Shown piece after piece: positions 28,456 to 53,303 of a stretch of DNA of 64,000 nucleotides (its first letter is position 1; the number at the start of each line of letters is the position of its first letter). The stretch comes from Candidatus Nanoarchaeia archaeon. Lineage in GTDB: Archaea; Nanobdellota; Nanobdellia; Pacearchaeales; GW2011-AR1. Location: contig JAQUKY010000007.1 in NCBI GenBank assembly GCA_028718805.1, positions 18,176 through 82,175 on the forward strand, read 5' to 3'. The notes beneath the pieces were generated by a model, which did not search any database, was not told the DNA's origin, and saw only the letters and a program-made list of their open reading frames with translations. A program made the translations under genes and the position numbers.

Positions 28456-28511
28456 TAATAAATCATTAAAAACATTTAAATATGGCCATTCATTAATAAC
28501 AGTAGAAAAAG

Positions 28512-31350: not shown

Positions 31351-31448
31351 AAATAACATAGAAAATAATGATATTTATAATTAACTAAGATTAATAATGA
31401 AATAAAATGAGCTAATCTATAATAAAAAAAAGAATAAAGCTATGAAAG

Positions 31449-31490: not shown

Positions 31491-31571
31491 TCTGTTCTAG
31501 AGGCTCTAAACTTTTAGGCCGTATATTAAAAACATTTAAATATGGCCATTCATTAATAACAGTAGAAAAAG

Positions 31572-32021
31572 ATGGTGTCATTAAAAGTTAATATTCATAA
31601 AAAAGATTTATGGCTTTTGTCTGCCATAGTTGTATTTCTGGTCGGAGTTGCTTATGTTATTGCTTATGGCTCAAGCCCTGCAAACCCTGCTGTTTTTGGG
31701 CACACTGCAAATGAAGTTGAAGGGGTGAATAATGCATGGGTTAAATTTAATGGTAGTGCTTCTGTGAGTGGAAGCAGAATATTAGGAAGTAAGGGTGTTT
31801 CATCTGTAACTCATGATGGTGCCGGGATGTATAATATAACCTGGGAAACTCCCTTTGCAAGTTCTAACTATTTAGTTATTGTAGACCCCGGATATATAGA
31901 TGAAGGATCAACGCAATCAGTTACTCCGAATAATGTTGTTGTATGGGTGCATAATAACGGGGGAGCAAGTGGAGGAACCTGGGCAGATACTGATATTGTT
32001 TATGTCATGGCGTCAGAATAA
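31572..32021 (+). CDS. signal-anchored surface protein, paralogue B
   Basis: N-terminal 32 aa and upstream 140 bp are identical to paralogue A. The body diverges. Confidence 0.5.
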   Translation: MVSLKVNIHKKDLWLLSAIVVFLVGVAYVIAYGSSPANPAVFGHTANEVEGVNNAWVKFNGSASVSGSRILGSKGVSSVTHDGAGMYNITWETPFASSNYLVIVDPGYIDEGSTQSVTPNNVVVWVHNNGGASGGTWADTDIVYVMASE

Positions 32022-32068: not shown

Positions 32069-32249
32069 AAATAAAAAGAAATCCACATCATTTATGATGT
32101 GGTGCTGATAATCGCTAATGCTGTGATTTAAACGCTTGTGGAAGCAGGTTCAATAAATTGAAGTCCACAGAGCAAAGCGGATAAGAGTAAAGATATAAGG
32201 AAGCCCACGCATTTATGCGTGGGAGGATGTCACATGTATGAAAATCAAT
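32069..32249 (+). repeat. copy 3 of the ~165-nt structured repeat
   Basis: Lies 47 nt after the stop of paralogue B. Its 3' extension gatgtcacatgtatgaaaatc matches copy 2. Confidence 0.8.
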
Positions 32250-32253
32250 ATTT

Positions 32254-32685
32254 TCATTTCATCCAGACAAAAAATCTTAGTTTTTTTGGATTATAATATG
32301 TAAGATTAGAGGTTACTAAAACTTCTGTTGCATAAATATTTTTTTCATATAAAGATGAGTCAGAAGCATATGCAGGGTTATCACATATATCATTTATATT
32401 ACAGATATTGGTTGTAAAGTTCCAGCTATTGGGTATTATCTTAGAAATAGCCTCATTAACTCTTGTATTGCTGTTAATGATTATATCATTTCTTAGGCTG
32501 TCATTCTTGCTTATAATATCTAAAATTTGTCTTTGCTCCTTGTAAATCGAATCAGAGATATCTGTTTCAGGAGCTTTTCTGGAAATGATAACTAACATAG
32601 AACCTACTATGAGTAATATGGCTAGAAACACTTCTAAGATTCTTATCCAAGCTTTCCTGTCTATTTTACTTATTCTTTTCTCCAT
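32254..32685 (-). CDS. pilin-like protein with a putative class III signal peptide
   Basis: DRKA/WIRILEVFLAILLIVG resembles a prepilin cleavage site plus hydrophobic stretch. Confidence 0.4.
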   Translation of the reverse strand: MEKRISKIDRKAWIRILEVFLAILLIVGSMLVIISRKAPETDISDSIYKEQRQILDIISKNDSLRNDIIINSNTRVNEAISKIIPNSWNFTTNICNINDICDNPAYASDSSLYEKNIYATEVLVTSNLTYYNPKKLRFFVWMK

Positions 32686-32700
32686 CTTTTTATTTTTTGT

Positions 32701-32775
32701 CTATAATTTCACTCTTTTTCCGCTTTGCAGATGAGTAGCAAATCTTATTTCTCTCATGCATAACTTACTTCGTCT
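32701..32775 (-). promoter_or_regulatory. conserved upstream/leader element, instance B, upstream of the 32254 pilin-like gene
   Basis: See instance A. Confidence 0.5.
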
Positions 32776-32834
32776 TTGTTTATTACCCACATTCACTTTT
32801 TATTATAAATTAAATAGTGTTATATCTTTTGTAT

Positions 32835-33482
32835 TTACCACACTCTTATATTTAATATTAATTCCTGGATCTGCCCGTTATTGTTGATAACTCTTACTGG
32901 AATATCCCTTGATTCAACATCAATCCCCTGAGGGATGTTTCTGTCAACACTTAGCTCAGCAGTTTCATTTTCAAGCAAATCTCTTGTCTTAAACAAAAAA
33001 TCATTTGTTATTCCTAAATTTTCTTTCAAATTATCATAACTATCATCACTCATTTCATAACTCGTTTTTAATTTTTTAAGATTATCTTCTAAAATCATTT
33101 CTTCTTTGGAATAGACTCCCAATGTATAATTTGTTTGATTACAATTAATATTTTTTATAGTGGCATTATTATTAAAAATATCATTAAAATAAATAGTATA
33201 TTTTATATTGCTCTCTTGAACTTCTTGATAATCCCCATCATAATCTGCTTCATTAAAATAATAACAAGTTCCGTTTACATTTAAAATTATAGAGAGTTTT
33301 CCAACACTATCACTTATGTTATTGATTATTCCCTTCTGAGCATTATCCATAATGTAATTCGGTTCTTCTGTCTTGGCAAAAGGGTTCAGAAAAATAAATG
33401 TAAATATCAGAAATCCAATAAAAATCACAAATGAAATCATAACTTCCACATGCCCCTGTGCGCGTTTTTCTTTTTTTCTCAT
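32835..33482 (-). CDS. pilin-like protein with a putative class III signal peptide
   Basis: KRAQG/HVEVMISFVIFIGFLIF. Confidence 0.45.
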   Translation of the reverse strand: MRKKEKRAQGHVEVMISFVIFIGFLIFTFIFLNPFAKTEEPNYIMDNAQKGIINNISDSVGKLSIILNVNGTCYYFNEADYDGDYQEVQESNIKYTIYFNDIFNNNATIKNINCNQTNYTLGVYSKEEMILEDNLKKLKTSYEMSDDSYDNLKENLGITNDFLFKTRDLLENETAELSVDRNIPQGIDVESRDIPVRVINNNGQIQELILNIRVW

Positions 33483-33496
33483 TTTTATTCTCCCCG

Positions 33497-36400
33497 TTAA
33501 TTTTTATATCTTTTTTTGCTTTTGATTATTGTCAAAGCAATAGCAGCAATTATGATAATAACAATAATATAAATCCAGTATTTCTTCAATAAACTTTCAG
33601 TCTTTCCAGTTGTATATTCTGTCATGTTTTCAGTATTGTTAATTAATGCATTCTGTCCTTCTTCTGTTTCAATCTTTTCATAAACGCTTTTTAACGTTAA
33701 ATTAGCCAGGTTGCTTGTTATGCTGTTTAATTTAACATAAAGGTCATAATAAGAATCATTAGTTAATTCAACTTTCCACTCTTCTCCAGCACTCATTAGT
33801 TTTTCCTGCTTTTCACTTGAAATGCTTATCAGTGCAGTTTTGCTTGTGTAATTGATATCTTTGACTTTCAGTTCATGACTTTTGTTATTAATATTAAAAT
33901 TAAATTTCCAGTTTTCTCCTAGTGATTTTGTATATCCATTAGATAAGCTCTCTTTATTAATAGTATAAACTGGCAGTCCTCCTCCGCCAGAAAGACTTGT
34001 TGCAGGCGTAGGGATATCAATTGAAAAACTGACATTCATTGTATCATTTCTGTTTCCTGCTGTATCATTGCAGTAAAACTTAGCAGTATAGCTTCCATCT
34101 CCCAAAGATTTAGTATAATTAAAATTTCTATTATCTGTTGTGTTCATTGTATAATTCGTAATCCCTGAATCAGTTGAATATAAGCAAGTTCCATTGTCAT
34201 CTAAAGTCACATTAAATAATGTTTGGGAAGTTGTGTATGTTGTTGCAGTTGGAGAGTTGATTGTTACTGATGGTGCAATTGTATCAATCAACAGCTGGTT
34301 GCTTCCAGATGCGGTTTCTATACCAGATATATTTAATGTCAAAAGATTTGTTGTTGTGTTATAGTTATATTCTGATGAAGAATAAGTTTTGTTATATGCT
34401 CCTGTATGTGAAGTGAATCTAGGTGAAGAAGGAATTACCGAGGTGTTTATAATTACTGTTAGATTATTTATAGTATCTGTCAAGTTGCTAGAAATATTTC
34501 TTATATTCCCATCAGAATAACTAAACCAGACAGGGGATTTCTCCCTCGAAGTTCCTTCTGTCATATTAAAGTTGTCTAAAACATAGGAATAATTGCTTGG
34601 TGTTAAGGTGATGTTTATGTCTCCATCATTTGAGTTTATATTTGAACTTCCTGCTATTGAATTATTTGAATAATAAATTAATGCATTCGTTAAATTATAA
34701 ATCTGCAACATATAACTATCTGTCGAGTTTGTATTATTAAGCAGAATATATGTTTCTGTTGTTGGATTATATTTATTAAAGAAAAGATTTACCCAAGAAT
34801 AAAGATACTTGCTTGAAGGTGTGAATACTCCTGTTAAGAGATTTATTGTGTAATCTGCTGTTTCTGCCAGAGTTATATTTATACCATCATTTACCCAGGC
34901 AGGACTAGCTGTCGTGCTTCCTAAACTTCCATTATGCAAACCCCCCCCTGAAGAATCATAAGCTATTGTTCCATTATTCTCATTGAATTTATATCTCAAA
35001 ATTAAATTAGTTGCATTTAAATAAGTCATAATGGAATTGTATGTTTGATTAGTATATCCAGTATAAGAAGGAGCATTATTTGCTGGATTAACAACCCCCC
35101 CATGCCACATGTGAATATAATCATCATTTCCTGTTAAGTTATATAAAAATGTTGGTCTATACAAGCCAACATCCCAGCCAGAATTAGGAGCTTCCATTAC
35201 AAAATTAGAATAAGCAGTAAAATACAGAGGATTTGAAGTTGATGCATTAGCAAAACGAATCCCGCCGTTTCCATTATACATCATCCAATATTCATTTTTG
35301 CTTGGAACTTCTATAACATCTAAATGCCACAAACCAAAAGGATGTACTGAGAATGTTACATTATTTATTAAGGTCCAGTTTAATCCGTCTGTGGAATTAT
35401 AATACATAACTAATTGCGATGCATTCCTGTTTTGGCACCACATGCGCCAGATATTATCACTACCATCTATAATTGAACAGGACCTGCTTGAATCTCCTTG
35501 AGAAAGATTCCATGATGCTGTCAGTATTTCATAATTCCAGGTAATTCCATCTGAAGAATTTTGCGAAAGAAGTGTTATGATAGAACCATTAGTCTCAAAA
35601 TAATATGCCCTTAACATATCATTTGTAGAATCATAAACAATATCGATATCTGCATGATAATTTCCAGCAGAAGTTGAATTTATTGGGTTTGTTAACCCAG
35701 CCGGAACCTGCCATCGGGTAGTCGGGCTTAAGCAGGAATCATTGCATACAAATATTGATGGATTTTCAACTTTAGAACTTCCATCTGCAAGCGGCGTATT
35801 TCCCATCCAGTATTTCCATCCATTCCATGTATTTGCAAAATACAATATAGATGGATGTATTGTTTGATTGCTCCCATCATAAGTTGGGATAAAAGTATGA
35901 TCTGTCTGATTTGGGAAAGTGTAACTTTTAGAAATAAATCCTCCAATTTCTGCAGAAGAATTAGTATATAATTGAGATATTTGCGCAGAAGTTAAAACAC
36001 TATTCCAAAAGCGAAAATCTCTTACGGAACCGTTAAAATATACCCCCAACAAAGGATTACCGCCAATAGTGGAATTATAGTTATATGAAGCGGGGAATTT
36101 TGGGGGGCAGGAAGTAGTCACATTCAAGTTTCCATCAAAAAAAATGCTTATATTAGTCAAATCCCAGGTTACAACTGCATTATGCCATTTAGTTGTCTCA
36201 GTCAAAACTTCATCTGCAGAAATTGCACAGTCTCCGTAGGAGCTGGCAAAATAAAATTGCAAGTCATTTTCATCTGCAAATGCTGTCCTTAAAACATAAG
36301 CATAAGAACTGGCTGCTGAACTCCTGTAAAAAATTGGCTTGGATTTCTCGATTTTATTCAGTTTAAACCACACTGAGAAAGTTGCAGCATGATAACTTAA

Positions 36401-36694
36401 ATCAAGGTCATAACGAGCATCACTTTTAGTATTAACAAAATCATTAGTGCCATCAAAACTAAGCCAAGTTGTATTTTTAACAATAGCAGAAAAATTGCCT
36501 ATATAATTCTGGCCTAGATTATTTGTAGAATTTGTTACGAAACTGCTCGAAAAATTAGATATATTGACATTGGAGGTTACATATTTTAATGCATTATTAT
36601 CATCAGAATAAATTGTCACAGTACTAGTAACAATAACTGATAAGAATGAAACTGCAACAAAAAACATTCCCAATAAAATCAATATTTTTTTCAT
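33497..36694 (-). CDS. giant (1065 aa) secreted surface protein with a C-terminal TM anchor
   Basis: Signal peptide. The body is rich in Asn, Ser and Thr with many NxS/T sequons. A conserved membrane-proximal domain is followed by a TM helix and a KSKKRYKN tail. Confidence 0.55.
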   Translation of the reverse strand: MKKILILLGMFFVAVSFLSVIVTSTVTIYSDDNNALKYVTSNVNISNFSSSFVTNSTNNLGQNYIGNFSAIVKNTTWLSFDGTNDFVNTKSDARYDLDLSYHAATFSVWFKLNKIEKSKPIFYRSSAASSYAYVLRTAFADENDLQFYFASSYGDCAISADEVLTETTKWHNAVVTWDLTNISIFFDGNLNVTTSCPPKFPASYNYNSTIGGNPLLGVYFNGSVRDFRFWNSVLTSAQISQLYTNSSAEIGGFISKSYTFPNQTDHTFIPTYDGSNQTIHPSILYFANTWNGWKYWMGNTPLADGSSKVENPSIFVCNDSCLSPTTRWQVPAGLTNPINSTSAGNYHADIDIVYDSTNDMLRAYYFETNGSIITLLSQNSSDGITWNYEILTASWNLSQGDSSRSCSIIDGSDNIWRMWCQNRNASQLVMYYNSTDGLNWTLINNVTFSVHPFGLWHLDVIEVPSKNEYWMMYNGNGGIRFANASTSNPLYFTAYSNFVMEAPNSGWDVGLYRPTFLYNLTGNDDYIHMWHGGVVNPANNAPSYTGYTNQTYNSIMTYLNATNLILRYKFNENNGTIAYDSSGGGLHNGSLGSTTASPAWVNDGINITLAETADYTINLLTGVFTPSSKYLYSWVNLFFNKYNPTTETYILLNNTNSTDSYMLQIYNLTNALIYYSNNSIAGSSNINSNDGDINITLTPSNYSYVLDNFNMTEGTSREKSPVWFSYSDGNIRNISSNLTDTINNLTVIINTSVIPSSPRFTSHTGAYNKTYSSSEYNYNTTTNLLTLNISGIETASGSNQLLIDTIAPSVTINSPTATTYTTSQTLFNVTLDDNGTCLYSTDSGITNYTMNTTDNRNFNYTKSLGDGSYTAKFYCNDTAGNRNDTMNVSFSIDIPTPATSLSGGGGLPVYTINKESLSNGYTKSLGENWKFNFNINNKSHELKVKDINYTSKTALISISSEKQEKLMSAGEEWKVELTNDSYYDLYVKLNSITSNLANLTLKSVYEKIETEEGQNALINNTENMTEYTTGKTESLLKKYWIYIIVIIIIAAIALTIIKSKKRYKN

Positions 36695-36824
36695 TTTGGT
36701 TTTCCCTATTTTTTGATTTATTTTATTCCTAGTAATTTATTAAACTATTTAAGTTTTATTAATCATATTTTGCTTAACTCTTAGTGATATTTGTCTTTGT
36801 ATATTATCCATCTTTATTTATTTT

Positions 36825-37718
36825 TCATCCTATAAGAACCTTGGCACCCGTACTGATTAATACTGCCAATGCAACTAATATAAACGAATGTTTTAATCCT
36901 GCCATCATTTTCCCTTCAGCTAATTTTCCTATTACTAATCCTGCAAAAAACCCCTGGGCTATTAAAAGCCATAAGAAAGGTTGTGCTAGTTGCTGTGCTG
37001 TTGCAATATCCCCCCTTGTCCCTAGATTGAATCCTGGAATTCCTTCTGCACCTGAACCCATTCCGCTCCCCAAACCCGAAGCAATAGGCAATATCTTAAA
37101 CTGCATAACCAGCATTATTATAATAAATATAAAGAAAATAATATATCCCTGCACCATTAAAGTATACATAGCAGCCCTTCTTTCTTTTTTCAATTTTTCA
37201 ACTTGAGACACAGATTTCGCAACAGCTTCAAGGATATCATCTATTTTCCCTCCTGCTTTTTCAGCTTCGCTTATAATTGTAACAGCTCTGGTGACTGTTA
37301 GGCTGTTAACATCTCGTGAAAATGTTTCTAATGCGCTTTTAACTGGTATTCCAAGAGCAATCTGATTTGCCAACTTATTGATGTGGGGATTTAACTTGCC
37401 ATAATCTTTTTTCCTGACATTTAATATGCTTTTGCTTATAGGAGTTCCTGCTTTAACATTTTCAACAAGGTTTCTTGCAAACTCCAAAAACATCTCTTCC
37501 CTTTCTCTTTCCGCGCTTGTTGTCAAAATTATAGAGACAAAAAACGGAAACATAGCAATAACTATTGCTAATCCAAGGACAAAATAAAATATATCTGTCT
37601 CTTTTAGAAAGATAATTGATAAAACTATCGTAGTAATTGCCACGATTAACCCAACTATCTGCCCCTTGTTTGGCTTGTATCTTCTCCAGTCTATGTTTTG
37701 CAAAAAGTCCATTTCCAT
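36825..37718 (-). CDS. type IV pilus platform protein, TadB/GspF-like half (single T2SSF domain)
   Basis: TM, then a cytoplasmic helical domain, then TMs. This is the typical single T2SSF-domain architecture. Confidence 0.55.
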   Translation of the reverse strand: MEMDFLQNIDWRRYKPNKGQIVGLIVAITTIVLSIIFLKETDIFYFVLGLAIVIAMFPFFVSIILTTSAEREREEMFLEFARNLVENVKAGTPISKSILNVRKKDYGKLNPHINKLANQIALGIPVKSALETFSRDVNSLTVTRAVTIISEAEKAGGKIDDILEAVAKSVSQVEKLKKERRAAMYTLMVQGYIIFFIFIIIMLVMQFKILPIASGLGSGMGSGAEGIPGFNLGTRGDIATAQQLAQPFLWLLIAQGFFAGLVIGKLAEGKMMAGLKHSFILVALAVLISTGAKVLIG

Positions 37719-37740
37719 TTTTTGTTTTGTTTATTTTTAT

Positions 37741-37800
37741 TCTATCTATAATCTCAAACTTTTATTCGCTTTGTTATGATTGCTCAAGCGTTTTAGTTTG
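37741..37800 (-). promoter_or_regulatory. related upstream element, upstream of the TadB-like gene
   Basis: aaacgcttgagc...acaaagcgaataaaagtttgagattatag. Confidence 0.4.
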
Positions 37801-37985
37801 AGTTTTACGGATTATGTTTTTTATTAATTTGTTAAACGATTTAAGCTTTGCAGATTATTTCATTAAGCCTTTTTTTATAGCTTTATGTTGTTCTGTCTTA
37901 GCTTATCGTCTTCTGATATTATTGATTTAGTTTTATTTTTAGTATTTGTTTATTACCGATTTTTATATTTATTTTGATTATCATT

Positions 37986-39347
37986 TTAAAATATTGGTTG
38001 TTTTAATCTTAGGAATAATAAAAATCCTACATTTAAGATTACTAAGCACAATATAATTAATACCGCCATTATTTCGGTTGTTAATCCCAAGAAAAACATT
38101 CCAGTGCTTCCCATTATTATAAACAACATTAATAAAATCATTGGGGCCGCAATAGAAATGCTTATATAAATATCCATCAGGGTTTCAGCTGTTTTGGTGT
38201 ATCTTTCCCTTTCTAGTCTATAATCAAATAATAATCCTTCTGCATGTTTATCTAAAAATTCATGCAAATCCCCACCAGAAGTTATTGTTGTAGCTAGGCC
38301 GTCAAGCAATTCTCTTAATTTTGATGAAGGGCTTGAACCAGCAACTCTCTTCAATGCAGTTACAAGGTCATAACCCTGAAAGTTTATAAGATTAAGAAGT
38401 TTTCTGAACTCCAACCTTGTGTTTTTATATTCTTCACTTTTTATAATAATCTCAAATATTGTTGTAGGTTCAATTCCAGAAGTTGCTATTGCAGACATAT
38501 GAATTGCAACAAAAGGCAGTTCCTGATCTATTTTTGCGCTTATGTTTCTGCCCTCGCTCTTAGGGTAGAAATACATAAACATGCCGGTTCCTATTGGAAT
38601 TGCTAAAACAACCCAGAATATATTAAAAAATCTTAATAATAAAGGTTCATCAATAGGAGTTATGCCGCCAAGGCTTATTTTATAAAATAATAAAAATACC
38701 ATCAAAAGTATGCTAAATATTGCAGCCAGCATCATTGTAAACAGGATCATCGAAGCATAGGTTCCAACAACAAAAGGAGAGTTCATCCTTCTCAAATCTT
38801 TATTTAATGGTTCTAAATAACCTTTCATTAGCAGCTTGTTTGAAGTGTTTCTGAAAAATTTGTTGGATGTTTTAGCATAAAAACTAGGCTTTCCAAAGGA
38901 AGCAATTGGCCTTTCAACAGAGAATTTGTTTTTAAGCTGATTAATAGTCAGGTTGCTTTTGCTTAGATTTTCGAGGAATTCTCTCCTGTCTTTTTCACTA
39001 ATTGTTATTTCGACCTTTTCTTTATTAATACTTGGTCGATATTTAATTTGTACAAGCTCTTTTTTAGCTTCGGTTTTATGAACTTCAGGAATCCCCTCAG
39101 ATACTGTTAACTTTTTATAGAACATCACATCTCCTATCAGTTCCGGGATTGATTTGTTTAATATTTTTAACTGAACCATAAGTGAATCAATCGCATCATT
39201 TAGAAGCTTTTTCTCTCTGAGGTTTATAACAATCTTGCTTGTAGCTTCAAGATTTTTGATTAAATTTAACTGATTTGTGAATACATACATTTCTCTGATT
39301 ATTTCCTTCATTCTAAGCATGTTTTGTCTTAATGCATCTGTGCTCAT
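37986..39347 (-). CDS. type IV pilus platform protein, TadC/GspF-like half (single T2SSF domain)
   Basis: N-terminal cytoplasmic region, TMs, a T2SSF-like cytoplasmic domain, then further TMs. Confidence 0.55.
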   Translation of the reverse strand: MSTDALRQNMLRMKEIIREMYVFTNQLNLIKNLEATSKIVINLREKKLLNDAIDSLMVQLKILNKSIPELIGDVMFYKKLTVSEGIPEVHKTEAKKELVQIKYRPSINKEKVEITISEKDRREFLENLSKSNLTINQLKNKFSVERPIASFGKPSFYAKTSNKFFRNTSNKLLMKGYLEPLNKDLRRMNSPFVVGTYASMILFTMMLAAIFSILLMVFLLFYKISLGGITPIDEPLLLRFFNIFWVVLAIPIGTGMFMYFYPKSEGRNISAKIDQELPFVAIHMSAIATSGIEPTTIFEIIIKSEEYKNTRLEFRKLLNLINFQGYDLVTALKRVAGSSPSSKLRELLDGLATTITSGGDLHEFLDKHAEGLLFDYRLERERYTKTAETLMDIYISISIAAPMILLMLFIIMGSTGMFFLGLTTEIMAVLIILCLVILNVGFLLFLRLKQPIF

Positions 39348-39350
39348 TTT

Positions 39351-39523
39351 TAATTCACCTCCGTGATCTCCGAGATTCTCTGATAAAAGTCAAAAATAAC
39401 TTTTTTAGCCTTTTCAAAATTCTCACTGTCATTATCCTGGTAAGCTCTTTCTAGTCTGTTTATTGCTACTTCCATGCTGTCTATCAACTGGGCTAATAGT
39501 TGTAAATGTTCTAAATCCGCCAT
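39351..39523 (-). CDS. small ORF (57 aa) between the ATPase and the platform gene
   Basis: Missed by the ORF track because of its size. Its stop overlaps the start region of the platform gene. Confidence 0.3.
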
Positions 39524-39640
39524 TTTTTTGTTTGTATAAATTGAACTTTATTCAGTAATCTATCAAACGATTTAATATGAGGCAATCATCTTCTTGCTTA
39601 ATTGCTCCTTATTGATTCGTATTTGAAGTTACCAATACAG

Positions 39641-39805
39641 TTAAATTTTTATTTTGTTATTTTTAACCTCCTCTTCTATTTTCTCTAAAACAGCAATATT
39701 AACAAATTGCCTGGCATTTGAATATTTAATTTTCATAGAACCATCTTTGATTAATTTCTTTATTTTCTTCAGTAATTCCTCATCTATCTTTACTACATCT
39801 GTCAT
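39641..39805 (-). CDS. small ORF (54 aa), possibly a ribbon-helix-helix protein
   Basis: MTDVVKIDEELLKKIKKLI... has an RHH-like pattern. It is preceded by the conserved leader element. Confidence 0.3.
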   Translation of the reverse strand: MTDVVKIDEELLKKIKKLIKDGSMKIKYSNARQFVNIAVLEKIEEEVKNNKIKI

Positions 39806-39810
39806 TTTTT

Positions 39811-39890
39811 GTCAGTAATTTCACTCTTTTTCAGCTTTGCAGATGAGTTCGTTAAGCTTAATCTTCCCATCCATAACTTATTTCGTTTTT
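39811..39890 (-). promoter_or_regulatory. conserved ~70-nt upstream/leader element, instance A, upstream of the small RHH ORF and platform genes
   Basis: Shares cgaaRtaagttatgSatg...taagcttaa...ctcatctgcaaagcKgaaaaagagtgaaatta with instance B, with 1 mismatch over the 33-nt core. Confidence 0.5.
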
Positions 39891-39995
39891 ATTTATTACT
39901 AATCCTTTAAACTGTTTATATCTAGTTACTAAAAATAACTTTAAATAACTATCAATAACTTATAGTAACCTATATTTAAAAATCTTGCTGTTCTG

Positions 39996-42900
39996 TCAAT
40001 AAGCCTGTTCATATGCAGGATTTTCATACTCCGGAGGGGCACTTTCTGTTTCAAATGGTATTCCAAATGCCTTTAATACTGCAACCGGATCTTTATGATA
40101 TTCATTGAATATCTTCTGATTCTGATTGAAATCAAAAATTCTCCTTTTTTGCATTTCGTATAGCAGCTTTGTCCTGAACTCAAATTCTTTGCCTAATTCT
40201 TCCAAGGTTAAACCATATCTTTCTGCAATTTTCTCAAAAACCTTACTGTCTTTTTTAAAATAAAAAACATCTTCTCTGGCATTCCATACAAAAGGAGTGT
40301 TTGTTAAAGCAATTCCTTTAGGGTCAACATTTATAATTTCAACAATCTCTCTTAATCTTCTTGTTTGCTGTTTGTTTACAATAGCATGGGTCATGACTGC
40401 AACACAATCTAATGTATTCAAAAGAGTAGGAGATAGTTCTATTGGAGGCGTTTCCAGTCTTTTAACTAATGTATCCACAGAATCTGCATGCATTGTGCTT
40501 ATAGATGAATGTCCCGAAGCCATTCCCTGGAACAGTACAAATGCTTCTTTTCCTCTGACTTCTCCTACAATTACATAATCTGGATTTTGCCTAAAAGAGT
40601 TTTTTAGTAAGCTAAACAAGTCAACTTCCCCGAAATTGCCTAATCCTAATGAGGTTCTTGAAACACTTGGCAGCCAGTTTTCTCTTGGAAGATTAATTTC
40701 CCTGGTATTATGGACAAAGATATTATCAACAATAAATTTCTCATGATCTGGTATGCTTAAGTCAAAAACCTCTGTTTCTTTAGGTTCTATTTTATTTATT
40801 TTTTTAACTCTATCCCAAAATATATCTGAATGTGACAAATCATTAAACAATGAGCCAGGTATTGCTATTTTCTGCAGGTAATCTCTTCCAATATTTTGCA
40901 TTCCCTGCAAATAAGGCCAGGATAATATCTTATTTGTATTAACATCTTTTAGCTGGTTTATGCTTAAAGGAACTATATCTGAATGGGTGTGCCAAGATTT
41001 TTTTCTTAACATTTCTATTACTTTTTCATTCTTTCTTTCCTGCAGAAATCCAATATCCGTGAATTTACTAATATTAGCAGAATCGGAAATTGACATGTTA
41101 ATACATTTATCTTTCCTGTCAAAATCATTGATTCTTGATATTATCCCAAATCTTAGAAGTAATGTCTGCAAGGTTTCAAGAATGTTTATACTTTGAGATG
41201 CGCAGGAAACTTCTGATTTTTTTGCACAGCCATCAGCACTAAAATACCCTCTTATAAAATGTTTTACCTGCTCATTTGAAAGCCCAAATATAAAATCAGG
41301 AATTTTTTTTGAATTTGAGCATCCATCAAATCTAAGGACATTTTTCATAAATTTATAGAAAATAGTGCTGTGTATTCTTAATGAAACTCCTCCGTCATTC
41401 ATCTCGGAATATCCTGCTTTAAGATATTCAGCCACATTTTTTAAAACATTTCTGCATTCTTCATCAATATTAGATAATATAACTGAATTTCCATTGTAGT
41501 TATCATAACTTCCATCTCCAAGCCATAGCCCGCAAAATTCTAGGAAATTATTACTTACATTAAAAATCACAGGTATTGAAGAGGTATTTTTGCTTTTTAT
41601 TCTTAGCTCTTTCAACTCATCATATGAAAAATTCTCCCTAATTTTTTTGAAATCCTCAATTTTTATAATATCATGTTCTTTCCACCATCTATATTTTTCT
41701 TTTTCAACTTTAAAGTCCTTTAATTTATATTTTTCAAAGATTTTTTTTATAGGTTTTCCAGCCAAGAAATCACCTTCAAAATATTCTAAATAACTCATTA
41801 AATTTATTTCTTTTATATTCTGCCCTTCAATTGGAAGTGCTCTTGGAACTGCTATAAACGATTCTCCTTCCTTGAGTTCAGTTGGTTTTATCTCTATTAA
41901 TCCATTTTCACCTAAGGAAAACAGGGAATGGTCTTGAGTTACTTTAACTTTTCTCCCTGTGCGAGTTAAAATTTCATAAATATCTTTTTTAACAGTGTGT
42001 TTTATATGGGAATAGGGTTTGACAAATATTATTTTCCCATTTTCATTTAAGGTCATTACTTCAGCATCTATTTTATTGTCTACAAATTCTTTTATTGTAA
42101 TATTCCTTATTTTTTCATTTTCTTTAATAATTATTTTTGAATCTCCTGTAACACTGTCTTCAATTGAAACAACTCTTGATTCTGGAGGGATAAAAAAAGC
42201 AATAGCATTCAACAAAGTTGTTTTTCCAGAGGCTGTTCCTCCTGAAATCAAAATGTTTGATTTATGTTCAAGCAAAATCCAAAAATAAGCAAGCATCTCG
42301 GGAGAAATTGTTTTCATGCTTAACAATTGAATTGGCGTCCATGGAACTTTTGTAAACTTTCTTATTGTAAATGTAGGTCCTCTCGAGGTTACGTCTACTG
42401 TGTAAGTTGCGTTTACTCTTGAGCCATCAGGCAAACTTCCATCCAGAATAGGGGATGCATAGGAAATATACTTCCCGCATCTTTGTGCTATTTTTTCAAC
42501 AAAACTTGATATTTTATCCATAGAATCAAATTTAATATTGGTTTTCATGTTTCTGTATAATCTATGGACAATGAAGATAGGGGTATTGATTCCGTTGCAT
42601 TCTATATCTTCTATAAAAAAGTCTCTCATTAAAGGCTCAATTTCATTTAACCCTACAAAATTTCTAAACAAATAATAAAATATTTTTTTATAAGATTCCT
42701 CACCAACAGTTAGAGCAAGCTCTTCAATCAACAATCTTGAAGTTTTGTCTATATAGTCTATCATGGCCTCTTTTGTTTTTTCAACAAGAATATTAACATT
42801 AATCATTTCTTCCAGGCTTCTTTCTAACACAACAAGCAAGGATTTCTCATTGTCGCTCAAAACCGGTTCCTCAATATTATAGAGAAGTTCTCCTACTCTT

Positions 42901-43028
42901 TGATCCCAATAAATATGGACGCTAACATAGGGAGAAATAAGGACATACCTGACATTAATTTTTGTTTTGTCCTCCATTTTAGGCAGGGCAGGTATTGTGG
43001 GGTTTAAATTTATTTCTATGCGTTGCAT
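39996..43028 (-). CDS. FlaI/TadA/VirB11-family secretion ATPase interrupted by an intein (527-aa extein)
   Basis: Walker A GGTASGKTT. The Asp box reads IED, then the intein, then TREINLP in place of IEDTPEL. Downstream His-box and VirB11-like motifs are present. Confidence 0.8.
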   Translation of the reverse strand: MQRIEINLNPTIPALPKMEDKTKINVRYVLISPYVSVHIYWDQRVGELLYNIEEPVLSDNEKSLLVVLERSLEEMINVNILVEKTKEAMIDYIDKTSRLLIEELALTVGEESYKKIFYYLFRNFVGLNEIEPLMRDFFIEDIECNGINTPIFIVHRLYRNMKTNIKFDSMDKISSFVEKIAQRCGKYISYASPILDGSLPDGSRVNATYTVDVTSRGPTFTIRKFTKVPWTPIQLLSMKTISPEMLAYFWILLEHKSNILISGGTASGKTTLLNAIAFFIPPESRVVSIEDSVTGDSKIIIKENEKIRNITIKEFVDNKIDAEVMTLNENGKIIFVKPYSHIKHTVKKDIYEILTRTGRKVKVTQDHSLFSLGENGLIEIKPTELKEGESFIAVPRALPIEGQNIKEINLMSYLEYFEGDFLAGKPIKKIFEKYKLKDFKVEKEKYRWWKEHDIIKIEDFKKIRENFSYDELKELRIKSKNTSSIPVIFNVSNNFLEFCGLWLGDGSYDNYNGNSVILSNIDEECRNVLKNVAEYLKAGYSEMNDGGVSLRIHSTIFYKFMKNVLRFDGCSNSKKIPDFIFGLSNEQVKHFIRGYFSADGCAKKSEVSCASQSINILETLQTLLLRFGIISRINDFDRKDKCINMSISDSANISKFTDIGFLQERKNEKVIEMLRKKSWHTHSDIVPLSINQLKDVNTNKILSWPYLQGMQNIGRDYLQKIAIPGSLFNDLSHSDIFWDRVKKINKIEPKETEVFDLSIPDHEKFIVDNIFVHNTREINLPRENWLPSVSRTSLGLGNFGEVDLFSLLKNSFRQNPDYVIVGEVRGKEAFVLFQGMASGHSSISTMHADSVDTLVKRLETPPIELSPTLLNTLDCVAVMTHAIVNKQQTRRLREIVEIINVDPKGIALTNTPFVWNAREDVFYFKKDSKVFEKIAERYGLTLEELGKEFEFRTKLLYEMQKRRIFDFNQNQKIFNEYHKDPVAVLKAFGIPFETESAPPEYENPAYEQAY
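40707..42155 (-). mobile_element. intein (483 aa) with a LAGLIDADG homing-endonuclease domain
   Basis: Block A is SVTGDSKI with Ser1. Block B contains VTQDH. The two LAGLIDADG motifs are LWLGDGSYD and IRGYFSADG. The C-terminal HN is followed by Thr+1. Junction codons were checked against the DNA. Confidence 0.75.
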
Positions 43029-43188
43029 TTTTCCTCTTTTTTGTTTTATCAGTAATCTATAAAACGAGGCAGTATGTACCTGAGTAGATTAAGATGTTAT
43101 TCATAAGCTTACTGCCGATTGCTCCTTATTTCCTCGTTTTTTGCATTACTGGTTTAGTTTTTATTTATATCTTAATATCCTTTTATAT

Positions 43189-43722
43189 TTAAATTATGCT
43201 AAATTCAATATTTGTATTTTGTCCTGGGCTAGAAGTTTCTTTATTCTGCATTACTATTTTATAAGGGGTTGTTCCTGCCTGCAAGGTTTTTATCCCTCCG
43301 TCCCCGTTTTTATTAGTTATGTCCAGGTTTGGATAATTCATTGTTAAGATTATTCTAAATCTTGCAGGCATTTTTTCAGTTCTGAGAACAATATTCCCCT
43401 GAGTAATATTTTCCCCAATTTCAGACAATTCTAGTTTAGTATCCTCTAAGGTGTATTTTATTAAATTGTTGTCAGCATCAATATCCAATCTCCCTTTAGA
43501 TATACCTAATTCAACAACTCTTGAATTGCCAGGCGCTTGTTCAACTTCTGAAATCTTTTTATCCAGGATATTAAGAGCAGTTACAGTTTGTTCTATTAAT
43601 GCCTTGTCCTTGGATTTTTCAATTTGAGGCAAAGCCATTGATAAAATTATTGCGATTACTGTTAATCCAATTAAAGTATAGACAACAGTTTCCACCCAGA
43701 TTTGGCCTTTTTTTCTAAACAT
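43189..43722 (-). CDS. type IV pilin-like protein (class III signal peptide)
   Basis: Start taken as the internal Met: MFRKKG/QIWVETVVYTLIGLTVIAI. Confidence 0.5.
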   Translation of the reverse strand: MFRKKGQIWVETVVYTLIGLTVIAIILSMALPQIEKSKDKALIEQTVTALNILDKKISEVEQAPGNSRVVELGISKGRLDIDADNNLIKYTLEDTKLELSEIGENITQGNIVLRTEKMPARFRIILTMNYPNLDITNKNGDGGIKTLQAGTTPYKIVMQNKETSSPGQNTNIEFSII

Positions 43723-44260
43723 TTGGACATCTTTGGAAAGCAGAGCAATCTTCAATAACAGTTGCTGTATCAGAAGCATCACATGCCTTACCGCCTTTTA
43801 AAATAGGATATACTCTTATTATATTAGGTTTAGTAGCAGTAATCACATAAGTTCTTTCTGTATTATCACTTAGAGGAAGCTCAATAGTTGTGCTTCCGTT
43901 ACACATAGAAACTCCGGTTATATTATTTCCGTTTTTTATCTTGTAACTATCAGTAGATGCTCCTCCCAGCTCAATGGAAACTCCTTCGATTAAATCTCTT
44001 ATTTCTAAAACATGAACCTGAACCTGCATTGCAGTGCCATTCCAGCAGGTATAACCAGAACTTATCTCTATTTTTCCTGTAACATCCAGGCAATCTCCTG
44101 AATTAAGTTTGTTCTTAACAAAGGGGATTACAAAAGCGATTATTAGCATTGCTGCAATTATTACGATTAAGATTAATAATACTGATGATATAATCTCAGA
44201 CTGTGCATTTGATTTTGAAAGTTTCGAATTTGTTTTCATTTTAAGCTTCCCACAAAACAA
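43715..44260 (-). CDS. type IV pilin-like protein
   Basis: KSNA/QSEIISSVLLILIVIIAAMLI. The start may instead be the Met at residue 8. Confidence 0.45.
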   Translation of the reverse strand: MFCGKLKMKTNSKLSKSNAQSEIISSVLLILIVIIAAMLIIAFVIPFVKNKLNSGDCLDVTGKIEISSGYTCWNGTAMQVQVHVLEIRDLIEGVSIELGGASTDSYKIKNGNNITGVSMCNGSTTIELPLSDNTERTYVITATKPNIIRVYPILKGGKACDASDTATVIEDCSAFQRCPNV

Positions 44261-44705
44261 AAGCAGCCTGTTCAGGACAGGTAAATTCTTTTATTCCCCC
44301 TTCTTTATTTTTTCCAAGAAGAATAGGTATTATTTTAACTTCAGTAGTAGTTGTAGGATCTATTGCTTCAACACTTAATTTTGTAGAGAGCCCGATATCT
44401 ACTTGCCCATTTTTAGTTTGGTCAGCACGAACAATTCTGGAATTCCCGCCCTCACTTATCTTCACATCAACTGCATATATTGGGACATTTCCAATGTTAG
44501 TAAATCCATAAGTATAATCTTCATTAACAAAAGTTTTAATACTTACCTCACTGCAGACATTTTCAATAGGCTTGTCAAATTTCAAAAGCTTTTCTTTAAT
44601 AAATCCCTGGCTCCATAACAAGATTATAATTGCGATTATAATCACAATCATAATTAAAAGAACTGTTGCAATAACAGGACTAACTCCCTTTTTACCTCTT
44701 TTCAT
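44241..44705 (-). CDS. type IV pilin (class III signal peptide)
   Basis: MKRGKKG/VSPVIATVLLIMIVIII is a canonical prepilin site. Confidence 0.6.
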   Translation of the reverse strand: MKRGKKGVSPVIATVLLIMIVIIIAIIILLWSQGFIKEKLLKFDKPIENVCSEVSIKTFVNEDYTYGFTNIGNVPIYAVDVKISEGGNSRIVRADQTKNGQVDIGLSTKLSVEAIDPTTTTEVKIIPILLGKNKEGGIKEFTCPEQAAFVLWEA

Positions 44706-44743
44706 ATTATTATCTTGTTTTTTTAATTTAAATATTTATTGTT

Positions 44744-45427
44744 TTAAACTGTGCATAAAGAAGTATTGAAAGTGCATTCTAGAGGGTCTTCCTGCGGATA
44801 GCATGATAATGTCCCTCCTGTGAATCCTCCAGGGATTGTTGTACAATTATTCCCATTTAAGTCACTTCCGTCACATAATTCAGTTCCATTTATTATATTA
44901 TCCCCGCAATATGAAAGTATCCCGCATCCGCTAACATCCTGCTTGATCAAGGCCTGTTCGCAGACAATTATTTTTCCTTTTTCATTTATTATATATGGTT
45001 GTATCTGGATAATTTCAATAAATCCTTCTTTTGTAAAACTAATCTCTCTTGGTTCATCACTTGGTTTAAATGTAGTATTAAAATCATAATAGCCTGGTGT
45101 AGTGGGAATTGCTCCATCCGGATATATTGCAGAAAGTTTTGTTGTAGGAATTCTGTTAATATCATCGCTTGCAAGAATTATGAATCCATTAACATTAAAA
45201 TTACCATTATTTTTGAGTTTAATTGTAATTATATTTGAATTGCAGGTAACATCATCTATCCTTAAAGAAGTTCCATCTCTGCAGTCAATTTTAGGATTTA
45301 CATTAGCTAAATCCTTTAACCATATAAAAACCCCAATTGAAATCCCAATTGCAATTGCAATTAAGATTACATAAGAAATCATCTCACTTACTCCTTTCTT
45401 ATTCATTCCTATTCTTTTTAATTTCAT
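44744..45427 (-). CDS. type IV pilin (class III signal peptide)
   Basis: NKKG/VSEMISYVILIAIAI. Confidence 0.55.
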   Translation of the reverse strand: MKLKRIGMNKKGVSEMISYVILIAIAIGISIGVFIWLKDLANVNPKIDCRDGTSLRIDDVTCNSNIITIKLKNNGNFNVNGFIILASDDINRIPTTKLSAIYPDGAIPTTPGYYDFNTTFKPSDEPREISFTKEGFIEIIQIQPYIINEKGKIIVCEQALIKQDVSGCGILSYCGDNIINGTELCDGSDLNGNNCTTIPGGFTGGTLSCYPQEDPLECTFNTSLCTV

Positions 45428-45574
45428 CTCTTTTTTGTTTATCTTTTGGTAATCTGTTAAGCGATTTTAATATGTTCTTGAGTAGCATAAGCTTCTCATA
45501 CATAGCTTATTTCATTTTTGTTTGTTATTAATGTTCACTTTTTTTATTAATTATATAAATTTATGTTAACTTTT

Positions 45575-46111
45575 TTAATTTCTCTCAATATAAACTTCTC
45601 CTTCTTTTTCCTGGGTTATAAGGAAATAAAACATTTCATTATTTCTGATTTCAAATTCAAAATTTCTGTTTAAGATTGTGACATTAATTGTTTCTCCAAA
45701 ACCGGTCAATCTTGTTCTATTGGCATAGATAGTTATTTCATTCCATGAAGGTGAAGCCCCCCCCAAAGTAGCATAAACATCTCCGGTATGTTCAGGTTTA
45801 TATTGGACAGAATATAATTCATCTGCATCACCATAAATAAAGACTATGCTTGTATTATCTGTTTTTTTTAAAAAATAGGGTGCAAATTCAGAATCAGTAA
45901 AATTATTCAAAACTCTTGTTAAATTATCCTTTGAATAAACCCCATAATCAACAATTCTAACAGTTTCTTCTCTTAATTCGCTTCCAATATCCTGTATTTT
46001 TCTTGGTTCTGATTTTACAGAAGCATAAGTTTTAACACTGGCAATTCCAGATACCGCCAGGATAATTATTATTGCTGCAACTAAGTAGTACTGCCCCTTT
46101 TTATTTCTCAT
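45575..46111 (-). CDS. type IV pilin (class III signal peptide)
   Basis: MRNKKG/QYYLVAAIIIILAV. Confidence 0.55.
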   Translation of the reverse strand: MRNKKGQYYLVAAIIIILAVSGIASVKTYASVKSEPRKIQDIGSELREETVRIVDYGVYSKDNLTRVLNNFTDSEFAPYFLKKTDNTSIVFIYGDADELYSVQYKPEHTGDVYATLGGASPSWNEITIYANRTRLTGFGETINVTILNRNFEFEIRNNEMFYFLITQEKEGEVYIERN

Positions 46112-46734: not shown

Positions 46735-48294
46735 TCATCTCATTATCAAAAAAACAATAAGAATTAAGATTAAAATTATAATTATAATCAAAAAACCAAG
46801 CAGGAACTTGTTTGTATAACCTGGACTTTTTGAATCCCCCAGGACATCTGATTTTTCAGAAGTACTATTAAGGCTTATAGCCCAGCCCTGATTCTGGCTG
46901 TTTAATTCTGAGTCTAATCCTAATAAAATTGACTGATGAGTTGAAGAAGAATCATCAAACTCCTTGCATCTGTCATGAGTGTAATAATATTCACTGCATT
47001 CCTCATCATAACAGCATCTGTGCTTATTTTCCTTATCATCCTCTTCTTCACTAGCGCATACTCCATCTTCACAACCATTGTCACATTCTTTAACAAGCTC
47101 TTTTACATTGCTTGAAGAACATGCTCCATTTGCACATCCTGGGATTATATGGTCTTTGTAAACATCCCCGTTATAACAATAATTATCAGAATAACTTTCA
47201 TTTCCGCAGTCCTGGAACAATTTCTGGATTACATTAATCACACATGTTTCATTTCCTCCGCAGGACCAGTCATTTAAATTCCAGTAAACATCACTATTAT
47301 AGCAGTATTTGTCAGAATATGAATCATTAGGACATTGTTCATCTGAACAGCAGGGTATAATCTCAATCTTGCATTCAGAGGAGCATCCATCTCCATTAAC
47401 ATTATTTCCGTCATCACACTCTTCACCTGCTTGGTTTACAAAGCTATCACCGCAGTGATGTTCAGGTTCAGGCGCGCAATTTCCGTCTTCACATCCATAA
47501 GTACAGTTTTCAACAAATTCATTCTTATAATCAGGAGTGGTAAAGCATGATGCACCAGAACATCCTCTTAAAACATCTGTCTTGTTTTTCCATACTTCTT
47601 TTCCTATGCAGTAATTATCCCAGGCCCCATATGAATTGCTTCCGCAATTCTCAAATAATTGAGGGGTTATGTTAAGAAGGCAATTTCCATCCTCGCAAAA
47701 ATGATTTATGAAATCATGGTAAATATTATTGCTAATACAGTATTTATCGCTATAAGTATCAATAGGGCACTGTGTGTCTGAGCAACATCCTTCACTTTCA
47801 ATTATGCAAAATTCATTGCATCCATCTCCATTTACTAAATTTTCATCATCGCATTCCTCTCCTGCATCTAGATTTCCATCACCACACTCAGGCTCTGGTT
47901 CATCAACACATTCTCCATTAAAACAGCCATATTCACACTCTTTTTTTAAGACGGAATTTATGTCCATATGGCAATAGCTGTCAAGTTCTCCTGGATTCTT
48001 GCATTCAAATGTTTTATACATCTGGTAAACATCATTATTATAGCAGTAAGGGCTTAAAATCAGACCAGAATCTCCGCAGTCAGAATTTGAAGAGCATATT
48101 GGCTCAAAACAGTTAAATCCAAAGCTGCTGCAGTTAAATTCAAAATTACAGAAATCACATTCAAAATCATCAAAATTAAACCCAAAATCATCAAAATTAA
48201 AACCGCATCCAGTATCGCATGCGCTGACAAGACTTATTAACATGACAGTTAATAATCCAAATATTCCAAAAAGCAATATATTTTTTGTATTCAT
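46735..48294 (-). CDS. Cys-rich secreted modular protein with a C-terminal TM anchor
   Basis: Signal peptide. Repeated CGDGxxxxGEECDDGNxVNGDGC and CCSDxQCPxDxYSDKYC modules also occur in the 53304 gene. C-terminal TM. Confidence 0.55.
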   Translation of the reverse strand: MNTKNILLFGIFGLLTVMLISLVSACDTGCGFNFDDFGFNFDDFECDFCNFEFNCSSFGFNCFEPICSSNSDCGDSGLILSPYCYNNDVYQMYKTFECKNPGELDSYCHMDINSVLKKECEYGCFNGECVDEPEPECGDGNLDAGEECDDENLVNGDGCNEFCIIESEGCCSDTQCPIDTYSDKYCISNNIYHDFINHFCEDGNCLLNITPQLFENCGSNSYGAWDNYCIGKEVWKNKTDVLRGCSGASCFTTPDYKNEFVENCTYGCEDGNCAPEPEHHCGDSFVNQAGEECDDGNNVNGDGCSSECKIEIIPCCSDEQCPNDSYSDKYCYNSDVYWNLNDWSCGGNETCVINVIQKLFQDCGNESYSDNYCYNGDVYKDHIIPGCANGACSSSNVKELVKECDNGCEDGVCASEEEDDKENKHRCCYDEECSEYYYTHDRCKEFDDSSSTHQSILLGLDSELNSQNQGWAISLNSTSEKSDVLGDSKSPGYTNKFLLGFLIIIIILILILIVFLIMR

Positions 48295-48429
48295 GTGGTT
48301 GATTGTACCTCGCTAATCACCCCAGAGTACTAAAAAAGAATAGATTATTTGTTTATAAACAAACTTATTCTTTTGAATATACTTTATTTTATCACTGATA
48401 TGTGAAACACTAATATCCCCAAAATAAGA

Positions 48430-48708: not shown

Positions 48709-48772
48709 TTTAATTTCCTCCTTTCATCTTTATTAATAAAAGGATAATTTCTTCTTTTATCTAATGCAAATT

Positions 48773-53125: not shown

Positions 53126-53303
53126 TTTTTAGTCAATCTTTACAGGATTACTACGAAGTTACAGCATTTTTTTAATATTTAAACATTATTATGTTAAGAA
53201 GTATATTAACTAAAATAAGTTATAAGTTGTCCTTATAATCGACGATAAAATAATGATTAACAACAAAACTAAATAATAAGAAGCAATTAACATTACCAGA
53301 TTT

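Follow-up and report, generated by a model that had tools for sequence, protein, structure and literature searches.

The window analysed here is a 64 kb stretch of DNA from a contig of a Candidatus Nanoarchaeia archaeon (JAQUKY010000007.1), AT-rich with a GC content of about 32%, and the locus under study, at window positions 32254-46111, carries what appears to be an operon for the assembly of a type IV pilus-like filament. The whole gene set of the locus lies on the minus strand. In the order of transcription it consists of five pilin-like genes (pil1 to pil5), a gene for an ATPase of the T2SSE type, two small open reading frames (ORFs) of 54 and 57 amino acids (aa), a gene for the N-terminal half of a membrane platform (platN), a spacer, a gene for the C-terminal half (platC), a gene for a 1065-aa surface protein, two more pilin-like genes (pil6 and pil7), and a hairpin. 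A preliminary description of this DNA had placed all the genes on the minus strand, which the ORF map of the locus bears out, and had listed the ATPase, the 54- and 57-aa ORFs, two membrane genes, the 1065-aa protein and two pilin-like genes in that succession, and all of them are present as ordered. The genes of the operon are free of frameshifts and internal stops. Conservation was studied in a sample of 85 related loci that were fetched for comparison, 73 of which hold both halves of the platform.

An ATPase of the T2SSE family with all four of its motifs, two T2SSF domains and a pilin that is recognised by a curated model are found side by side, which places the locus in the type IV filament superfamily. 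The motor gene (39996-43028) encodes an assembly ATPase of the T2SSE/VirB11 family as a precursor of 1010 aa, 527 aa after splicing, and the ORF is matched in Pfam by T2SSE (94.9 bits), Intein_splicing (91.2 bits) and LAGLIDADG_3 (60.1 bits). In the spliced protein the Walker A (GGTASGKTT), Asp box (SIED/TREI), Walker B (DYVIVGEVRG) and His box (GHSSISTMHA) motifs are all readable. Its best solved relative is AfGspE of Archaeoglobus (2OAP, 2e-112, 379 bits, residues 17-501), followed at some distance by FlaI of Sulfolobus (279 bits) and the Tad ATPase CpaF (161 bits). AfGspE belongs to Clade 2, arCOG01817, in the classification of archaeal type IV pili by Makarova et al. 2016 (PMC4858521), and by similarity only we would assign the ATPase of the window to this AfGspE type.

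Two genes code for the platform. platN (37986-39347) gives a protein of 453 aa with a cytoplasmic extension of about 190 aa, transmembrane helices and one T2SSF domain (51.4 bits), and platC (36825-37718) one of 297 aa, also with one T2SSF domain (64.9 bits), so that the two separate membrane genes with a single domain each of the preliminary description are indeed there. The spacer between them (37719-37985) is 267 nucleotides (nt) long and AT-rich, and holds neither an ORF nor a coding remnant. Both halves score best with the archaeal FlaJ/UpsF models, and along the 555 positions of the ArlJ/FlaJ model of NCBIfam platN covers 43-248 and platC 277-550. Together the two proteins make up an ordinary archaeal platform of the FlaJ/UpsF type, with the N-half and the C-half encoded in collinear order. 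They are distant paralogues with an identity of 20% (hhalign), which speaks for fission and not for a recent duplication. In the AlphaFold2 (AF2) model of platC, which has a mean predicted local distance difference test (pLDDT) value of 75, the cytoplasmic helical domain superposes on EpsF/OutF of type II secretion (TM-score 0.75, root-mean-square deviation 2.9 Å, probability 1.0); sequence searches with platN and platC against the PDB gave nothing useful.

The split is not a peculiarity of this contig. In all of the 73 related loci that hold both halves these are distinct ORFs that share a strand and follow one another in N-to-C order, and we conclude from this that the division of the platform is an old trait of the lineage, neither a defect nor an import from bacteria. 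The gap between the two genes is about 1 nt in most relatives, and exactly 1 nt in 36 of the 73, while the closest relatives, L005 and L006, have spacers of 358 and 483 nt. Homologues of platC are plentiful (3848 detectable); the 120 that were listed are all 275-323 aa long except for one of 246 aa, with identities of 60-91% among those listed, and in a library-wide search relatives of the same split size reach down to about 30% identity. Some proteins of 600-870 aa have a platC-like C-terminus, and two of these come from Thermoplasmata and Diapherotrites. They were considered as possible fusions of the N- and C-halves, but we do not count them as such, since their N-terminal parts were detected neither by phmmer nor by a hidden Markov model (HMM) built from 77 platN sequences. 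A platform in two pieces has precedents, since archaeal Clades 1, 2 and 4B have already been recorded with two tadC-like genes, in Clade 2 in "many" cases (PMC4858521), and Denise et al. 2019 derive even the bacterial TadB/TadC split from a fission in archaea (PMC6668835).

Upstream of the ATPase gene, at 43189-46111, five consecutive genes encode short proteins that each have one N-terminal hydrophobic helix after [KR]-[G/A]. These are pil1 (45575-46111, 178 aa, MRNKKG/QYYLVAAIII...), pil2 (44744-45427, 227 aa, NKKG/VSEMISYVIL...), pil3 (44241-44705, 154 aa, GKKG/VSPVIATVLLI...), pil4 (43715-44239, 174 aa, KSNA/QSEIISSVLL...) and pil5 (43189-43722, 177 aa, RKKG/QIWVETVVYTLIGL..., with Glu at +5 and an invariant Pro). 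At the other end of the operon, after the 1065-aa protein, the two further pilin-like genes that had been described earlier are found as pil6 (32835-33482, 215 aa, RAQG/HVEVMISFVIF...) and pil7 (32254-32685, 143 aa, DRKA/WIRILEVFLAIL...). Three of these proteins, pil1, pil6 and pil7, have a single N-terminal transmembrane helix and no HMM match. The whole window has 54 non-overlapping ORFs of 100 aa or more. A loose class III signal rule fits 8 of them, 7 of which lie in the pilus locus, so the clustering of pilin-like genes is not a matter of chance. Eight pilin-like genes had been announced in the preliminary description, although its own list gave seven, and seven is also our count. As an eighth we looked at the plus-strand ORF of 149 aa at 31572-32021, which was not convincing, with K-K-D instead of G/A in front of the helix.

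The best supported pilin is pil3, which scores 34.3 bits (cut-off 20) with TIGR02537, the N-terminal domain of archaellins and type IV pilins, and resembles UpsA (E=4e-9); it is the best candidate for the major pilin. The others stay below the thresholds: pil2 has an UpsA-like N-terminus (E=0.0018), pil4 reaches 16.7 bits with Pilin_N and 17.5 bits with TIGR02537, and pil5 is weakly similar to ComGE (E=2.8e-5). What all seven families have in common, across dozens of orthologues, is a basic residue, a small residue at -1, which is nearly always G, A or S, a characteristic residue at +1 and the hydrophobic helix. The motif around the small residue is [KR]G/QF[YF] in pil1 (kept in 32 orthologues), [KR][GA]/[VIL]S[EL] in pil2 (conserved among the orthologues), [KR][GA]/VSPV in pil3 (60 orthologues), [GAS]/Q[SA][EQD] in pil4 (52), [GAS]/QIWVE across the orthologues of pil5, Q[GAS]/H[VI]E in pil6 (50) and [KR][GA]/W[ILV][KR]I[IVF]E in pil7 (57).

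Two of the pilins deserve a closer description. The most conserved of them is pil5, which is present in 70 of the 85 loci, and its AF2 model (pLDDT 91) consists of an N-terminal helix of 60 residues and a beta domain of 10 strands. The pil5 profile has weak matches in the PDB, which align through the N-terminal helix including the conserved proline, and the best four, and 6 of the 8 listed, are bacterial type IV pilins. The other one, pil2, is modular. Its orthologues are mostly 160-200 aa long and end near residue 170, while in some genomes they are 395-596 aa. In the window it carries an extra Cys-rich module of 57 aa at the C-terminus, which resembles the DUF4215-type repeats of the 519-aa and 1458-aa surface proteins encoded nearby.

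Between the ATPase and the platform lie the two small ORFs. The gene of the 57-aa protein, here called sm57 (39350-39523), ends 2 nt before platN and encodes a cytoplasmic helical protein, and an equivalent of 50-70 aa is found directly upstream of the gene for the N-half in 71 of 75 loci. The family has a conserved pattern of two helices, LAQL...LE.AY...D.E.F...KKEIL..Q.KI. No relatives of sm57 were found in Pfam or the PDB, and a profile of the family (about 54 aa) matched only designed helical bundles in the PDB, which is uninformative. The 54-aa ORF (39641-39805) has no HMM match, is present in 6 of the 85 loci and could possibly be a ribbon-helix-helix-like small protein, a resemblance seen by eye only. 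Since this ORF and the 1065-aa protein with its laminin G (LamG) domain occur in few close relatives only, we regard both as recent, lineage-specific additions to the operon.

The modal order in the 85 loci is pil1-5, ATPase, small ORF, platN, platC and pil6-7, often followed by archease and RtcB, and this order recurs in dozens of genomes that are labelled Pacearchaeota, Woesearchaeota or Nanoarchaeota. The core of pilins, ATPase, small ORF, N-half and C-half is kept at 33-37% identity even in the distant and clearly archaeal contigs L086 and L087, where the equivalents of sm57 are 68 and 83 aa long, and the related loci all lie in archaeal genomic contexts. Neither the divided platform nor the Asp-box intein, to which we turn now, is out of the ordinary in this lineage, and many related genomes have them. 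One of the related loci, L006 (JAUUWR010000006.1), comes from a record named "MAG: bacterium isolate CSMAG_44", and it carries the archaeal operon with an ATPase that is 83% identical to that of the window; the record is probably mislabelled.

The ATPase gene had been described as intein-containing, and this is confirmed both by the Pfam matches to Intein_splicing and LAGLIDADG_3 and by a clean insertion in comparison with the orthologues. The intein (40707-42155, minus strand) comprises residues 292-774 of the precursor, 483 aa, between ...RVVSIED and TREINLP.... Alignment with the orthologues of two related contigs, L001 and L003, which lack the intein, shows the precise insertion, and at the insertion site the intein-free allele reads ...TCIATIGAAGAT/ACI.... 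The intein begins with Ser292 (Ser1), has TQDH in block B and His-Asn at 774, and is followed by Thr775 (+1); the motifs LWLGDGS and FSADGC are of the LAGLIDADG type. These features make it an ordinary class 1 intein that carries a homing-endonuclease domain of the LAGLIDADG type. Its GC content is 0.289, to be compared with 0.34-0.35 in the exteins. Because the intein interrupts the Asp box, we would expect the precursor to have no activity before splicing, judging from known T2SSE ATPases.

The best 120 ATPase homologues by score all have an intein at the same site. In the 101 homologous inteins that were examined, Ser1, the His-Asn pair and Thr+1 do not vary, and the length stays within 481-485 aa. 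At the same time the ATPase gene is uninterrupted in at least 80 species-level genomes, one of them at an extein identity of 83%. An intein at one site in many genomes and an uninterrupted gene in so many others means that we are dealing with a presence/absence polymorphism. The identity to the copy in the window is 56-88% for the inteins and 50-90% for the exteins. That the intein is as conserved as its host ATPase suggests active homing between lineages, or else selection on the intein itself.

One of the homologues, P0124, has an intein that is 88% identical to that of the window and an extein of only 78% identity. Some relatives have longer ATPases, of 1442-1557 aa, in which a further intein occupies one of three additional sites (P0125, P0138, P0144, P0154, P0166, P0176, P0197, P0229, P0232, P0234 and P0235). 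In extein residues the extra sites are at about 203 (LPDG/S...HN/SR), about 220 (GPTF/C.../TIRKF) and about 355 (FQGMA/S...HN/SGH). This makes four insertion sites in all, and the ATPase family is thus an intein hot spot.

Inteins are known from another archaeal ATPase of the same general kind, KlbA, which is a VirB11-like ATPase. The KlbA inteins of Methanocaldococcus and Thermococcales are of class 2, with Ala1 and Cys+1 (PMC2807308), whereas the intein of the window, of class 1 with Ser1 and Thr+1, has 483 aa and a LAGLIDADG domain. An intein of the KlbA type was ruled out because the class is different and because a PDB search gave no match in sequence to the structure of the KlbA intein.

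Taken together, we think that the locus is a type IV pilus-like assembly operon of DPANN archaea of the Pacearchaeota/Woesearchaeota type, related to the adhesive pili of archaeal Clade 2, and we would put the probability of this at about 0.7. Clade 2 includes the system of Archaeoglobus with AfGspE and that of Haloferax volcanii with PilB/PilC and the PilA pilins (Makarova, Koonin & Albers 2016, PMC4858521). The two share an AfGspE-like ATPase of the VirB11 family, a platform of the TadC/FlaJ type that often is encoded by two tadC-like genes, pilins with predicted class III signals encoded beside the motor, and the lack of accessory genes of the archaellum, and the characterised members of Clade 2 mediate adhesion. 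They differ in that the platform in the lineage of the window always consists of two single-domain halves, the N-half with its extra cytoplasmic region of about 190 aa, and in that this lineage has a protein of the sm57 type before the platform genes, seven fixed pilin families and an intein in many ATPase alleles.

The filament would most likely serve in adhesion, or in contact with a host or between cells. DPANN archaea depend on physical contact with a host. Cryogenic transmission electron microscopy has shown pili-like links between ultrasmall cells and their hosts, and strong attachment to the host has been reported, with an enrichment of Pacearchaeota in those size fractions that are attached to hosts (PMC7906910). 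With such reports of pili-like appendages in communities that contain Pacearchaeota, and with the neighbourhood of surface proteins, a role in adhesion or host attachment is reasonable. An adhesive or host-attachment apparatus is also what had been proposed from the start, and the pilus-like locus of that proposal stands, while the role is something that we infer. A functional analogue, although not a homologous subtype, may be seen in the Saccharibacteria, episymbionts of the candidate phyla radiation. They are described as ultrasmall host-dependent cells with a conserved type IV pilus that mediates host binding (PMC12206443). Theirs is a bacterial machine of the type IVa pilus type with PilB/PilT and a two-domain PilC.

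We hypothesize that the assembly could proceed in the following way. The ATPase would be made as a precursor of 1010 aa, inactive through its interrupted Asp box, from which the class 1 intein would excise itself and join ...SIED to TREI..., giving a normal hexameric motor of 527 aa. The two halves platN and platC would associate in the membrane to a platform with two T2SSF domains, probably together with the helical protein of the sm57 family (about 54 aa). The seven prepilins would enter the membrane and be cleaved after the conserved G, A or S by a peptidase encoded elsewhere; as there is no gene for a prepilin peptidase near the operon, the processing of the pilins has to be assumed. Motor and platform would then lift the pilins into a filament with pil3 as the likely major subunit, and pil5 and the other pilins may be low-abundance subunits for initiation or for the tip. 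The variable C-terminal modules of pil2 could present adhesive domains.

Several observations weigh against the assignment to the adhesive pili of Clade 2. A prepilin peptidase of the A24 family (PibD, FlaK or EppA) was found neither in the window nor in the conserved neighbourhood of the 85 loci. None of the seven pilin-like proteins matched the Pfam class III signal model at E<=0.1, and in the Pfam and NCBIfam scans just 1 of the 7, pil3, passed a curated HMM threshold. The five canonical class III signals of the preliminary description are in this respect reduced to one that a curated model supports, even if the helix after [KR]-[G/A] is there in all five. Foldseek gave no significant structural match to the pil5 model in the PDB. 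Seven different pilins in a constant set are, moreover, typical also of the short pseudopili of type II secretion and competence.

This last point leads to the strongest of the other explanations, which we consider unlikely but worth keeping in mind, namely that the filament is not adhesive at all and is instead a short pseudopilus for the uptake of DNA or the secretion of proteins, which would supply a metabolically reduced symbiont. The seven different pilin-like genes, strictly conserved as a set and in their order, resemble a set of pseudopilins, pil5 has traits of the bacterial type with its Glu+5, its conserved Pro, the weak similarity to ComGE and PilA and the label PulG that the Joint Genome Institute (JGI) gives to its homologues, and the organism is a reduced DPANN archaeon. 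On the other hand, the ORFs of the window that were scanned include no genes for a ComEC-like channel, a nuclease or a secretion substrate, and the nearest characterised relatives, those of Clade 2 in Haloferax and Halobacterium, are adhesion pili (PMC4858521). The variable surface modules that are gained by pil2 also fit with display on an external filament.

Somewhat less probable still, and to be seen as speculation on our part, is that the locus represents a distinct class of archaeal type IV filaments, a dedicated device for host contact or trafficking of DPANN symbionts and not a generic pilus for adhesion. It would have a platform in three pieces (the helical protein of about 54 aa, an extended N-half and a C-half) that arose by a fission independent of the Epd and Tad systems, a fixed set of seven pilins, a modular pilin that swaps its adhesive head, and a motor gated by one or more inteins. 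If this were true, the pilin set would include a bacterial-like pilin with Glu5 and Pro, and the motor would be gated post-translationally by inteins that are as conserved as their host protein. 

Systems of this kind, split platforms and the idea that DPANN cells attach by means of pili are all known already. In the literature that we searched we found no description of this operon architecture in DPANN, of inteins in DPANN pilus ATPases, of the C-terminal add-on modules of pil2 or of the family of helical proteins of about 54 aa to which sm57 belongs. The association of an sm57-type protein with a split platform may offer a view of how the two halves assemble, which would be relevant also to Tad pili, and since the modules of pil2 differ by lineage they may determine what the filament binds to. 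As the operon is among the most conserved surface-structure loci of Pacearchaeota and Woesearchaeota, it is a sensible target for cryo-electron tomography, metaproteomics and heterologous work.

It is very improbable that the system is a bacterial Tad-like (type IVc) pilus, or that the split platform was acquired from bacteria. The notion comes from the two platform genes with a single T2SSF domain each, as in TadB/TadC, and from database records that name some of the ATPase homologues "Flp pilus assembly ATPase TadA", and the preliminary description had called the platform a bacterial Tad-like split that is unusual for archaea. This does not hold, because the halves are collinear with FlaJ/UpsF and fit these archaeal models best, the ATPase is much closer to AfGspE than to CpaF and reaches only 121.8 bits with the TadA model TIGR03819 (cut-off 373), the split is found in 73 of 73 loci that all have an archaeal context, and split platforms have been published from archaea, where the literature also puts the origin of the Tad split. 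The Epd pilus of Methanococcus maripaludis and the bacterial Tad/Flp pili, which function in adhesion, do share the two single-T2SSF platform genes, read as the fission of a two-domain ancestor (PMC6668835). The gene order is different, however, with platform-platform-ATPase or tadA-tadB(C-half)-tadC(N-half) in those systems (PMC6668835) and ATPase, N-half, C-half here. There is no second ATPase of the TadZ/FlaH type, neither a TadZ-like one in the window or the conserved neighbourhood nor one of the MinD/FlaH/KaiC type among the families that recur near the operon in the 85 loci. The pilins, with their 143-227 aa, are not of the short Flp type, and the similarity of the ATPase to CpaF is distant.

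Even less can be said for an archaellum, the rotary swimming organelle. Its ATPase and platform belong to the same superfamily and are homologous to those of the window, the best NCBIfam matches are to the FlaI and ArlJ/FlaJ models, and JGI names homologues "flagellar protein FlaJ". The scores are, however, far under the equivalog cut-offs (357 against 550 bits for FlaI, 60-91 against 400-570 for FlaJ), AfGspE is a better match than FlaI, the platform is split, and no subunit has the length of an archaellin. The ORFs scanned in the window and the conserved neighbourhood include neither FlaF/G/H nor FlaC/D/E/X genes, in agreement with the earlier judgement that this is not an archaellum, which was made on the absence of FlaF/G/H. 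Least credible of all is a decaying locus with a platform broken by a stop or a frameshift and an ATPase disrupted by a selfish insertion, as the two pieces with their 267-nt spacer and the interrupted gene might suggest, because the halves are separate, full-length and well conserved among the listed homologues as well as split in 73 of 73 loci, the intein is in frame with its catalytic residues kept in 101 of 101 homologues, and the operon genes contain neither frameshifts nor internal stops.

Large surface proteins flank the operon on both sides. The 1065-aa protein within it (33497-36694, minus strand) has an N-terminal signal or anchor, a Laminin_G_3 domain, an Ig-like Big_13 domain and a C-terminal transmembrane helix, in line with the secreted protein of the preliminary description. 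It is absent at the same position in most relatives, and in L005 a LamG protein of 415 aa is found there. Upstream (46735-57680, minus strand) there are proteins of 519 aa with DUF4215, 1149 aa of a Big_9/cadherin-like type and 1458 aa with DUF4215, together with small ORFs, and a signal peptide and a C-terminal transmembrane helix are predicted for the large ones. The downstream flank has proteins of 612 and 928 aa, and overall the flanking domains are Big_9/cadherin-like, DUF4215 and PKD. With sizes of 519-1458 aa the adhesin-like proteins of the flanks are large and not giant, as they had first been called.

A GC-rich hairpin at 32204-32223 (minus strand), 30 nt after pil7, contains the terminator-like site CCCACGCATAAATGCGTGGG, a consensus match only, and is a possible end of the transcription unit. 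A scan for sigma-70 promoters gave matches that were not above the shuffled expectation, and the sigma-70 model is not applicable to archaea. Neither tRNA nor Rfam RNA was found in the window. Further downstream follow the genes of RtcB and archease (29570-31359, minus strand; Pfam 531.6 and 128.7 bits). RtcB is a tRNA ligase. The two genes lie directly downstream of the pilus operon also in L001 and L003 and in about 27 further loci, so the adjacency is conserved, without an evident functional link to the pilus operon. The RtcB-archease pair is flanked in the window by a perfect direct repeat of 139 nt (28465-28603 and 31525-31663). Each copy consists of 47 nt upstream and the first 92 coding nt of two plus-strand paralogues (28512-29309, 265 aa, and 31572-32021, 149 aa) with the shared N-terminus MVSLKVNIHKKDLWLLSAIVVFLVGVAYVIAY.

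A few other genes of the window may be mentioned. A presenilin-type signal-peptide peptidase is encoded at 12442-13371 (Pfam SPP, 53.9 bits), an intramembrane aspartyl protease that is not of the A24 family. The origin-associated protein genes OapC (20565-21014) and OapB (21163-21546) are present, the cumulative GC skew has its peak at about 14-16 kb, where gene orientation shifts from mostly plus to mostly minus, and an origin or a terminus of replication may be located near 14-16 kb of the window. Two small ORFs, at 60450-60791 and 13339-13689, match Fic (33 bits) and Fic-like_C (21.6 bits, sub-threshold), and these Fic/DOC-related proteins may be toxin-like or related to AMPylation.

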